37,666 nucleotides of DNA from Methanomassiliicoccales archaeon. GTDB lineage: Archaea > Thermoplasmatota > Thermoplasmata > GCA-020350865. The DNA lies in the NCBI GenBank assembly GCA_020347705.1, contig CP070739.1:2541158-2578823 (forward strand), written 5' to 3'. Of the stretch, positions 22,634 to 37,666 are shown one piece after another. A program made the position numbers and the translations under genes. A model generated the notes under the pieces. That model saw only the letters and a list, made by a program, of their open reading frames with translations. It was not told where the DNA came from and ran no database searches. The stretch's first letter is position 1; the number at the start of each line of letters is the position of its first letter.

Positions 22634-22755
22634 AAATTTAGAATGATGGACCTGCCCGTGCTTCGGCTTAAGACAGGAGTAAATATAAACATAACCGAAG
22701 CGCTAAGGGCCATCATGTATTTAAGATAATAAAATTTGAATGATGGCCCTGCCCG
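22634..22755 (-). repeat. tRNA-Pro-linked ~97-bp module (inverted and direct copies of the tRNA 3' end around a conserved hairpin)
   Basis: 11-bp perfect IR 22706-22716 / 22740-22750; direct repeat 22634-22658 vs 22732-22755; hairpin 22658-22703. Confidence 0.75.
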
Positions 22756-22818
22756 AATTTGAATCGGAGTCACAGCGTCCCGAACGCCATAGGATTGACC
22801 AAACTACCCCACAGGGCC
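22744..22818 (-). tRNA. tRNA-Pro(CGG), CCA not encoded
   Basis: Cloverleaf GGCCCTG/CAGGGCC-A; D-loop AGTTTGGTCAA; anticodon loop TTCGGGA; T-loop TTCAAAT. Confidence 0.92.
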
Positions 22819-22950
22819 ATTTTTATGGTTGAATGAGATAATACCTTAAAATGATTGCTCTGCATCATATTCTACCCAAACATATGAAATATCAAGACAT
22901 GAGTACATTGCCAATGCTAATCATATATTAGTGTTATCTGAAAAACTTGT

Positions 22951-36295: not shown

Positions 36296-36379
36296 GCGAG
36301 GGTAGCTAAGCTTGGTCAACGGCGCAGGATTGAGGGTCCTGTCCATAGAGGTTCTTGGGTTCAAATCCCAACCCTCGCA
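36296..36379 (+). tRNA. tRNA-Leu(GAG), CCA not encoded
   Basis: GCGAGGG/CCCTCGC-A acceptor; anticodon arm CAGGA-TTGAGGG-TCCTG; long variable arm; GGTTCAAATCC. Confidence 0.95.
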
Positions 36380-36533
36380 TCGTATTAAATTTTTATATAG
36401 TCAAAGATGCGAGGGTTTCGTGTTTGAGTTATGCTGGGACGTTGCTATGTCTTAAACTCAAACACCTAACACTTGGTTCCAATTAAATCTGTCAAACTCG
36501 GTCACCCAAAAAAGCTGTTTGTCCGAGTTATGT
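36367..36533 (+). repeat. tRNA-Leu-linked ~98-bp module plus a degenerate second unit
   Basis: 12-bp perfect IR 36370-36381 / 36406-36417; hairpin 36420-36465; degenerate direct copy of the tRNA end 36465-36488 (17/24); GAGTTATG recurs at +99. Confidence 0.7.
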
Positions 36534-36551
36534 TATTATTCAACCTAAATC

Positions 36552-37666
36552 TTAATCTTCAGGAGGAGGTGGAATTTCCTCACTCAAATCCTCAGGAGGG
36601 GGAGGCAGGGGTTCAGATGGGGGCTCAGACGGGGGTTTAGATGGAGGTTCAGATGGGGTTTCAGGTGAAGGTTCTTGAGCCGCTTCTTGGCTTTCATCAG
36701 CGGTTTCCTCTAATTGTGCATCCTCACCATCTACTGGTTCCGGGCTTTGTTTTATCTCGGGGCCCCTTTTCCTCAAAGCAACCCAAAGGTTGATGACAAA
36801 CAAAACGATTATTACAATTATTAAGAACCAAATCCACAATAGATCCTCTGGCTTAGAGTCCTCGGGCTCTTCTTCAACTATGTCTTTGGATTTTATCGTT
36901 ATCATGACACTTGCACTCTTTCCACCGGCTGTTACGTTCACATAACAGGTCCCTGTAACCGATGATGCCTTGAAAGCTGCAATCTGTAAATCCTGTGAGG
37001 TGATTGTTCCAAGATCATTATTTATACTCCAGGTATAGGTAATATCGTCTATGGGATTGTTTTGCGAATCGTAGGCCTGGGCCAATAAAACCACTGTTTC
37101 GTTTGCATTAATGCTCACCTCGGATGGAGTGATAATAATAGAATTCACGGAGATTGTTGAAAAATCCCATGAGTGAGGAATCAACCCAGAAGTCAAATCA
37201 TTACCAGCCATATCTTTTCCCGTGGTAATTTGGAACGTGTAGGTGGTTCCCAGAGCAAATGGATTATGGAGTAATGTAAGAACTATGTTTCCATTGCTCC
37301 AACCTACAAACCATCCTCCCGGATCAGGAGAACATACATAATCGATAGAGGAAGTATCCATTTTTTCGCTGAATGTTACGATAATATGCGTGCTCAGATT
37401 TACATTGGCCTCATCATCAGCTGGTGAAGTGGAAATAATTATAGGTGCAACCAGGTCTCCCAAAGTGGTAAATCTCCAGGGATTCTGAGCTCCATCGGGA
37501 TCAAGGTCATTTCCCGCAATATCCCTCCCATCGATAATATAAAAATCATAGAGGGTTTGAAAAGCAATCTGATTGTGTGAAAAAGTCACAACCGTATCAC
37601 CACTGCTCCAACTCTCAGACCATCCCCCTGGATCGGGAGCACAAAAATATTTAATCGATGACGTAT
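36552..37666 (-). CDS. surface protein with repeated SbsA/Big_5 Ig-like domains, TM anchor and Pro/Glu-rich tail (N-terminus outside window)
   Basis: Frame open to the window end (TSSIKYFCAPDPGGWSESW repeats the later TSSIDYVCSPDPGGWFVGW); TM followed by RKR; PSEPP repeats. Confidence 0.85.
   Translation of the reverse strand, partial: TSSIKYFCAPDPGGWSESWSSGDTVVTFSHNQIAFQTLYDFYIIDGRDIAGNDLDPDGAQNPWRFTTLGDLVAPIIISTSPADDEANVNLSTHIIVTFSEKMDTSSIDYVCSPDPGGWFVGWSNGNIVLTLLHNPFALGTTYTFQITTGKDMAGNDLTSGLIPHSWDFSTISVNSIIITPSEVSINANETVVLLAQAYDSQNNPIDDITYTWSINNDLGTITSQDLQIAAFKASSVTGTCYVNVTAGGKSASVMITIKSKDIVEEEPEDSKPEDLLWIWFLIIVIIVLFVINLWVALRKRGPEIKQSPEPVDGEDAQLEETADESQEAAQEPSPETPSEPPSKPPSEPPSEPLPPPPEDLSEEIPPPPED

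Follow-up and report, generated by a model that had tools for sequence, protein, structure and literature searches.

A candidate family of short insertion modules at the 3' ends of tRNA genes in one lineage of Thermoplasmata

Two unrelated tRNA genes of a Methanomassiliicoccales archaeon, tRNA-Pro(CGG) and tRNA-Leu(GAG), are followed by short sequences of one and the same layout, in which a hairpin of constant design is preceded by an inverted copy of the end of whichever tRNA gene stands in front of it. Both genes lie in a 37,666-nt stretch of contig CP070739.1 (positions 2,541,158 to 2,578,823), here called the window, and the question they raise is how a single scaffold came to carry sequence matched to different tRNAs. 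A sequence-only reading of the window had suggested either a non-autonomous element whose insertion at the 3' end of a tRNA gene duplicates this target, or a switch in the pre-tRNA trailer. Our results favour, at a probability of about 0.55, non-autonomous insertion modules that have tRNA 3' ends as their target and form a family specific to one lineage. This reading is supported by a multi-copy and patchy distribution, by arrays, by differences between orthologous loci and by one pair of an empty and a filled site, where spacer, inverted copy, linker and hairpin are present or absent as a block at the exact tRNA 3' end, together with a second copy of about 13 tRNA bases.

The window belongs to a 3.2-Mb metagenome-assembled genome of the class Thermoplasmata (G000; 375 joined contigs, 43.5% G+C). 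It was compared with four congeners (G001, G002, G003 and G004; completeness of the five genus genomes 80-91%), with a genome of the nearest outgroup family (G005), with G006 and G012, each from another family, and with an evenly drawn class-wide sample of 151 genomes, consisting of the five of the genus and 146 others. Transfer RNA genes were called with ARAGORN, which gave 34 in G000 with introns allowed. The hairpin was searched for with a covariance model built from nine copies (R1), at E <= 0.01 in the genus genomes and E <= 1e-4 in the class sample. A pattern-based census, independent of R1 and covering G000, 21 loci of G004 and 14 metagenome loci, yielded 73 hairpin cores.

The module and its hairpin

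Read in tRNA sense, a filled site runs from the tRNA end (T1, or L) through a spacer (S), an inverted copy of the tRNA end (L'), a short linker and a hairpin (H2) to a distal copy of the tRNA end (T3), after which the native trailer follows. The module is non-coding, ~85-110 nt long and usually found ~35 nt behind the tRNA gene, and it contains two hairpins, the first being the helix between L and L' (H1). L' measures 8-13 nt, mostly 9-12, and T3 repeats roughly the final 13 bases of the tRNA in direct orientation. Because the module begins at the 3' end of the tRNA and T3 precedes the original trailer, the tRNA stays intact.

When the tRNA-Pro locus was read again, every element that had been described there was found in its place (Table 1). 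The L arm of this module is the 5' arm of H1, its trailer bases co-vary with the L' arm over five genomes, and T3 is a direct copy of the tRNA-Pro end at an offset of 97, with one mismatch and one indel. At tRNA-Leu, the statement that the flanks match the host tRNA holds for the inverted copy only, since the distal direct copy can hardly be recognised; a 7-mer copy with at most one mismatch was looked for and none was found. The stem of this second module differs from the first by paired changes. Of the enzymes whose absence from the window had been noted, two families were checked, and neither Y1_Tnp nor Phage_integrase has a match there. A degenerate second loop-like motif, unreported by the model, lies ~60 nt behind the tRNA-Leu module (36517-36560, plus strand); it has TTATG and TCTTAA at the correct spacing, without a matching 3' arm. 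A mini-ORF in the loop was considered and dropped, as ATG and TAA are out of frame (worked by hand).

Comparison with shuffled sequence placed the bare loop motif at chance level: with up to two mismatches it occurs three times in the window against 1.4 expected, and 13 of 100 shuffles reach three, which is not significant. Motif and stem together lie far beyond chance and are decisive, with an R1 E-value of ~1e-11 for both window copies. The covariation first seen between the two stems was borne out in 66 R1-aligned copies, where 93.3% of the stem cells are paired against 68.0% in shuffles and two-sided changes occur in eight of the nine stem pairs (161 cells). RNAalifold adds three further invariant TTA:TAA pairs and one bulged purine, and several positions inside the loop are conserved too. 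In the census, an inverted repeat abuts the hairpin core in 45 of the 73 cases (2.4 expected, maximum 5, in 30 shuffles). Stem cells that depart from Watson-Crick pairing, taken on the tRNA-sense strand, are C-A or A-C 29 times and G-T or T-G 13 times. This may be a weak hint, from copies that are related to each other, that the opposite strand is the folded one; that strand is likewise predicted to fold into both hairpins.

Searches against Rfam returned no match at gathering score in the window and only E > 3 around the module. This negative carries little weight, because the same searches missed both tRNA genes, including one over 451 nt with the threshold relaxed to E <= 10. Nor did Rfam give a family for what lies upstream of a copy not linked to a tRNA. 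A bulge-helix-bulge intron (two 3-nt bulges, 4-bp helix) was not seen by eye, a look for which no dedicated search was made.

Table 1. Positions of the two modules in the window, and of repeats and an insertion sequence discussed in the text
Feature	Position	Strand	Basis
tRNA-Pro(CGG), host gene of module 1	22742-22819	-	ARAGORN; orthologues in three congeners and an outgroup genome
Module 1, L arm (T1), AGGGCCATCAT: end of acceptor 3' strand, discriminator and 4 trailer bases	22740-22750	-	sequence
Module 1, spacer, 23 nt, AT-rich, loop of H1; T4 run, then TATA-like stretch	22717-22739	-	sequence
Module 1, L' arm, ATGATGGCCCT: perfect reverse complement of the 11-base L arm (mirror copy)	22706-22716	-	sequence
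Module 1, H2: 9-bp stem, arms 22695-22703 with 22658-22666	22658-22703	-	R1, 58.5 bits
Module 1, H2 loop	TTATG 22690-22694; N14 22676-22689; TGTCTTAA 22668-22675; bulged purine 22667	-	sequence
Module 1, loop motif TTATG-N14-TGTCTTAA	22668-22694	-	motif search
Module 1, T3: copy of T-stem 3' strand, acceptor 3' strand and trailer	22634-22658	-	sequence
tRNA-Leu(GAG), host gene of module 2	36296-36379	+	ARAGORN
Module 2, L arm: tRNA end and 2 trailer bases	36370-36381	+	12-nt perfect inverted repeat
Module 2, spacer, 24 nt, AT-rich; T5 run and TATA-like stretch	36382-36405	+	sequence
Module 2, L' arm, 12 nt, reverse complement of the L arm	36406-36417	+	sequence
Module 2, H2: perfect 9-bp stem; loop motif 36429-36455	36420-36465	+	R1, 56.5 bits
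Module 2, expected T3 site: faint likeness to the tRNA-Leu end, nearly decayed	36466-36495	+	sequence
tRNA-free repeat, G000	G000:C1 571900-572080, 902970-903150, 1734100-1734290		
tRNA-free repeat, G004	loci L136-L142, L150, L154		
IS200-type element, G004	L155, G004:C1 ~2860309-2860969; L160, ~3338969-3339629		

Distribution of the family and differences between orthologous loci

The module is not the two-copy rarity that the window had made it appear. R1 finds 27 matches in G000 and 43, 41, 27 and 17 in the four congeners (G004 having the 43), which amounts to 17-43 per genus genome, and in G000 the module stands behind most tRNA genes. Within the class sample, matches occur in the five genus genomes and in G012, the sole match among the 146 other genomes and one of eight sampled in its family. 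The G012 copies lie in a repeated context without tRNAs, in which Tandem Repeats Finder found no array. A pattern for one subfamily led to 14 metagenome contigs, all of which hold the hairpin in a comparable context; by eye, 11 have the full or flipped layout, two copies sit inside module arrays and one is cut at a contig edge, and ARAGORN calls a tRNA upstream in eight of the 14. The same pattern had no match in viral contigs, where a loose form of the motif gave more than 114 matches, and none of the 80 of these that were examined with R1 is a real hairpin. The module is therefore neither rare nor general. It forms a multi-copy family, patchily distributed and restricted to one lineage, in which it has expanded. 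Contigs assembled from three DNA runs stop at the module; no joint was found in them, and they are hence silent on alleles.

Linkage to tRNA genes is close. Among the 26 R1 matches listed for G000, 14 lie on the same strand 33-298 nt downstream of a tRNA called by ARAGORN, and one lies downstream of a tRNA with its hairpin flipped. Seven others, situated at contig gaps or within arrays, follow what by eye resembles a tRNA 3' end that ARAGORN did not call. The remaining four are unlinked to a tRNA, three of them belonging to a tRNA-free repeat and one following an unidentified sequence. Independently of the hairpin, the last 12 bases of the 34 tRNAs (at most one mismatch) recur as 18 direct copies within 1 kb downstream and not once upstream; their reverse complement recurs seven times downstream, always at an offset of 23-25, and twice upstream, far off. 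In the census, 26 of the 73 hairpin cores follow right behind a T-loop. In these first modules the spacer is 23 or 24 nt long in 21 of 26 and has a run of at least four T's in 22, and the distal direct copy is present in 19. By eye, a TATA-like stretch follows the T-run in the spacers, and ~25 nt separate it from the first G in the stem of H2. One compact module, constant in size and layout, stands behind at least 15 different tRNA genes, and a two-hairpin module with a direct and a mirror copy follows most tRNA genes of the genus. Several tRNA genes of G000 have no module, and the number per tRNA ranges from 0 to 4 with types mixed.

The origin of L' can be narrowed down at both tRNA-Ala genes, where L' has an A opposite U70, a position at which the 5' strand of the tRNA has a G. 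It is hence to the 3' strand that L' is complementary, and an origin as a copy of the tRNA 5' strand, left over from a duplicated tRNA gene, is refuted. A rule by which L' would always be better preserved than T3 was likewise rejected, with counter-examples both ways.

The module type of the tRNA-Pro and tRNA-Leu loci (M1) is one of several short units behind tRNA genes. At least three other types occur in G000 (two of them termed M2 and M3 here), with different hairpins and a common logic of AT-rich stretch, inverted copy, hairpin and direct copy of the tRNA end. In these, the inverted copy is drawn from a portion of the tRNA 3' region and follows its template at ~23-25 nt. Tandem arrays occur behind one tRNA, different types being mixed within single arrays. 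Certain M1 units have two tiers, L' and H2 being separated by a further inverted repeat and spacer. The hairpin may also be flipped: 3 of 61 hairpins have the inverted repeat on the other side only, and the flipped segment is bounded in some cases by the two arms of the stem and in others by L' and T3, themselves a pair of inverted repeats. A dispersed subfamily does without tRNAs. Its conserved unit of ~112 nt combines a first hairpin of its own, both arms being its own sequence, with the same second hairpin, is flanked on both sides by C-rich sequence, and is present in three copies in G000 (87-91% identity) and in eight copies in the G004 loci examined.

Two of the other types can be described further, at sites outside the window. 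In the second, AT-rich sequence is followed by T-loop and T-stem 3' strand in inverted copy, then by a hairpin of ~40 nt unlike that of M1 and by a direct copy beginning within the T-loop; this type often shares an array with M1 (G000:C1 1362826-1362600, 2774313-2773800, 2838768-2839000 and 2512273-2512560; L316 in G003). The third is ~130 nt long with conserved ends, and its closing part is once more a tRNA-end copy that reaches back into the T-loop (G000:C1 1493001-1492600 and 3040173-3039950; L325 in G003), and short forms of it stand behind tRNA-Ala(TGC), tRNA-His and tRNA-Gly(TCC).

Orthologous tRNA loci hold 0, 1, 2 or 3 modules, sometimes of other types. The search for an empty orthologous site gave one clean empty/filled pair, at tRNA-Glu(TTC), where G000 is empty, G001 has one module and G003 has one module and another type, with a flanking gene common to all three. 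In G001, what comes after T3 is homologous to the native trailer that G000 has behind its tRNA. The spacer shows no such homology and so is part of the insert. Exactly 13 bases are doubled, comprising the T-stem 3' strand, the acceptor 3' strand and the discriminator. The insert is accordingly made up of spacer, mirror copy, hairpin and the 13-nt duplication, with the native trailer after the second copy.

Three further loci show how variable the sites are. Behind tRNA-Ala(TGC) we found M1 and M3 in G000, M2 and M3 in G003, a single M1 in G002 and two M1 in G004; all direct and inverted copies in G003 bear that genome's own T-stem variant, which fits templating at insertion or later correction within the hairpin. 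Behind tRNA-Leu(TAG) the module is present in G000, G001 and G003 and absent from G004, and in G002 (L329, G002:C21) the tRNA is followed, at a distance of ~45 nt, by the start of a tyrosine integrase gene. Where three congeners have the hairpin module, G002 thus seems to have an integrated element of the classical kind; its far end is not within the 2.4 kb examined. Behind tRNA-Pro(CGG), G000 has one module, G004 one with its hairpin flipped, G002 one and a solo copy of the tRNA end, G003 at least two and G001 two, the first of them degenerate, and the outgroup G005 has a plain T-run. Over the five genus genomes, trailer and L' at this locus have changed jointly, with three states, and T3 has other states in G002 and G004. 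The joint change implies that H1 has been kept paired, by selection or by correction.

Some observations at these and other tRNA genes stand apart from the module. A conserved element of ~85 nt with a long closing stem lies ~250-400 nt behind tRNA-Pro(CGG) in G003 (L128), G001 (L129) and G002 (L130), between the modules and the next gene; G000 and G004 lack it at this place. It could be a small RNA that has escaped annotation. At tRNA-Pro(GGG) of G006 (L177, G006:C18), the tRNA end recurs as a direct copy ~100 nt downstream; the hairpin before it is a different one, an inverted copy is lacking, and short duplications of tRNA ends may be wider spread than the module. The tRNA genes of G000 are intron-rich, many having introns of 14-145 nt according to ARAGORN. 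In G001, tRNA-Gly(CCC) has an apparent insertion of ~46 nt inside its T-loop (L010, G001:C41), where ARAGORN called no intron and which would be a non-canonical intron position.

Insertion weighed against its rivals

If the modules are insertions, the enzyme responsible would act in trans and recognise hairpins folded from a single strand, with H2 as its handle. That the stems vary yet stay paired and that the loop is conserved suggests recognition of a folded single strand, either DNA or RNA. L' would pair with the last bases of the target, T3 would be a fresh target and thereby give rise to arrays, and modules could be lost by recombination between the direct copies T1 and T3. The fit of L' to each tRNA would come about either by templating at insertion or by later correction within the hairpin. 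A bolder version, which we consider unlikely, is a programmable insertion guided by base pairing: the hairpin would recruit a recombinase that acts on folded single strands, a guide of 8-13 nt would pair with the tRNA end, set the insertion point and be re-templated for each target, and one scaffold could in this way colonise every tRNA gene and leave it intact.

Several points weigh against insertion. No enzyme could be linked to the modules, with Y1 HUH, tyrosine integrase, IS110, TnpB and Cas1 sought. A Y1 HUH transposase (PF01797) is above cut-off in all five genus genomes, with 5-17 matches each, and in G004 an IS200-type element of 661 bp with a Y1 transposase gene is present in two identical copies at different places, a sign of that element's recent transposition; its hairpins are unrelated to those of the module. 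Tyrosine integrase genes occur in all five genomes (in G004 as two fragmentary matches only), and two of those in G000 adjoin tRNA-Ser(GCT), in an element cut by contig gaps. The expectation that copies might lie beside HUH or tyrosine recombinase genes found no support: with filters off, R1 detected nothing in 12 loci (six Y1_Tnp, six integrase; best E 1.1). Among three genus genomes, G012 and G005, the IS110 DEDD transposase (PF01548) was found in one, G004. The search with the TnpB zinc ribbon (PF07282) turned up no convincing TnpB, with weak partial matches in very long frames of G000 and G004 and none in G012. Cas1 (PF01867) was found in none of the five genus genomes, whose completeness is 80-91%, and the control matched 7 of 14 known genomes. 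The idea of a constant scaffold with a target-matched guide is still one that we infer; no HUH, tyrosine, IS110, TnpB or Cas1 enzyme could be tied to it.

The remaining points against insertion concern the modules themselves. No identical copies were seen, and there is hence no proof of recent movement. Presence and absence could stem from deletion between the direct copies of old arrays, and by eye the ends of the insert in the tRNA-Glu pair are not inverted repeats. L' and T3 decay without a rule: at tRNA-Leu(GAG) of G000, L' is perfect and T3 is lost, and at tRNA-Glu of G001, T3 is perfect and L' has two mismatches. We know of no transposition chemistry that makes an internal inverted copy of its target. 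Finally, the paired changes of trailer and L' at the tRNA-Pro locus fit a selected function as well as mobility, and the same is true of the strong orientation bias, the 93% paired stems and the fixed spacer.

The rival that survives best, which we nevertheless regard as unlikely, is a host function in cis, with the module as a lineage-specific 3' cassette of tRNA units that acts as a signal for termination or 3' maturation or as a small RNA gene. In the maturation variant, L' would pair with the tRNA 3' end and trailer in read-through transcripts. A fixed position and spacer length, T-runs in most spacers, stems that stay paired around a loop conserved at many positions, and orthologues in which trailer and L' change together all fit such a function. 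The predicted minimum-energy fold of a tRNA-Pro read-through transcript, in which the tRNA 5' strand pairs with T3 and T1 with L', points weakly the same way (z = -2.39; equalled by 5 of 200 shuffles), and it is all that speaks for a switch in the pre-tRNA trailer. The distance of ~25 nt between the TATA-like box and the H2 stem is that between promoter and start in archaea, so H2 with its tail identical to the tRNA end could be a small RNA. A precedent exists in Methanopyrus kandleri, in which a palindrome ~10 bp behind about half of the tRNA genes was proposed to be a signal for maturation (PMC5217627). A function of this kind is at odds with the absence of the module from the sister family and from 145 of the 146 other genomes of the class, with tRNA genes of G000 that lack it, with a number that varies from none to four per tRNA in mixed types, and with flipped copies and a dispersed subfamily free of tRNAs. 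Moreover, the T-run of the spacer should stop most tRNA transcripts before L', and a terminator after T3 was rejected, as a T4 run follows soon after T3 in only 3 of 19 cases. Mobile-element and host-function readings are not mutually exclusive.

We consider it improbable that the modules are scars of integrase-borne elements, that is, of viruses or plasmids with tyrosine integrases that duplicated the tRNA 3' end and were later deleted down to their ends. In archaea, integrated elements are commonly accompanied by a partial copy of a tRNA gene (PMC9897764). In the genus every genome has tyrosine integrase genes, which at tRNA-Leu(TAG) of G002 and tRNA-Ser(GCT) of G000 stand next to the tRNA, and a tRNA-Pro end copy ~100 nt downstream is also found in G006. 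Random deletion remnants would differ from each other, and a compact module of constant size and layout behind so many different tRNA genes is not what they would leave. The duplication is also short, ~13-18 nt against 44 bp in an example from the same source (PMC9897764), an inverted copy of the target is foreign to att sites, no hairpin was found at six integrase loci or in viral contigs, and G004 combines 43 R1 matches with only two fragmentary integrase matches. Purely local evolution without insertion, in which old tandem duplications of tRNA 3' ends were homogenised by unequal crossing-over and hairpin correction, would account for tandem arrays, variable unit numbers and flips between inverted repeats, but is very improbable given that the same hairpin and spacer recur behind many unrelated tRNAs, in the tRNA-free subfamily and in the genome of another family, and that L' is not derived from the tRNA 5' strand.

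Related systems and significance

Insertion at tRNA 3' ends thus being the reading we prefer, the module can be compared with known systems. The literature searched, with supplements outside its scope, holds no system of this architecture; the nearest are integration footprints, MITEs (miniature transposable elements with inverted repeats), casposons (PMC5137440) and the palindrome of M. kandleri. Elements of tyrosine recombinases share with the module the tRNA 3' target, an intact tRNA, a direct copy on the far side and tandem accretion (PMC9897764). The module differs in being ~100 nt long without a gene, in a duplication of ~13-18 nt rather than tens of bases, and in that it contains the target in inverted copy as well as a conserved hairpin, the same behind many tRNAs. 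Judged as an att remnant, it shows the direct repeat of the tRNA 3' end, and the ~100 nt between the repeats contain no ORF and thus neither an integrase nor a larger element.

The left end of IS200/IS605 elements has a hairpin that serves as a handle, just 5' of which an internal guide pairs with the flanking target; the process is strand-specific, the pairing covers ~4 nt and no target duplication is made. The module resembles these elements, as well as PATEs and REPs, in its folded hairpin with an adjacent target-complementary stretch on the 5' side. It departs from them in a pairing of 8-13 nt and a 13-nt duplication, and although Y1 transposases are present in the genus, the hairpins of the resident IS200-type element are not like its own. 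With MITEs it has in common that it is short, non-coding, multi-copy, dispersed, lineage-specific and flanked by direct repeats, here the 13-nt duplication. Unlike MITEs it has, by eye, no terminal inverted repeats (spacer compared with the 3' arm of H2), its duplication is long and its target strict, and part of it matches that target.

Casposons likewise choose tRNA 3' ends, where they duplicate 14-15 bp of the target on integration. The module is similar to them in target and in length of duplication, and dissimilar in lacking terminal inverted repeats and genes, in a genus in which Cas1 was found in none of the five genomes. The E. coli tyrT distal repeats follow a tRNA gene in tandem and have its final bases in every unit, and in this they are like the module; they differ in being limited to one locus rather than spread genome-wide, in their longer units and in having neither a conserved hairpin nor an inverted target copy. 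The M. kandleri palindrome is, like the module, a lineage-specific palindromic motif at a fixed short distance behind tRNA genes; it is a simple 19-nt sequence without a copy or mirror of the tRNA end, and neither arrays nor dispersed copies of it are reported (PMC5217627).

At a practical level, the modules break short-read assemblies at tRNA genes, and the tRNA-end fragments that they contain could pass for att sites of proviruses. The 3' ends of tRNA genes are classic landing sites of large integrating elements, and here a tiny module without genes uses them. Its inverted, target-matched stretch is not explained by any transposition or integration chemistry that has been described. If this match is a guide, the family would show that nature programs insertion by sequence on a scaffold of very small size. 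A module that served the host as a signal would, on the other hand, add a new lineage-specific layer to the formation of tRNA 3' ends in archaea.

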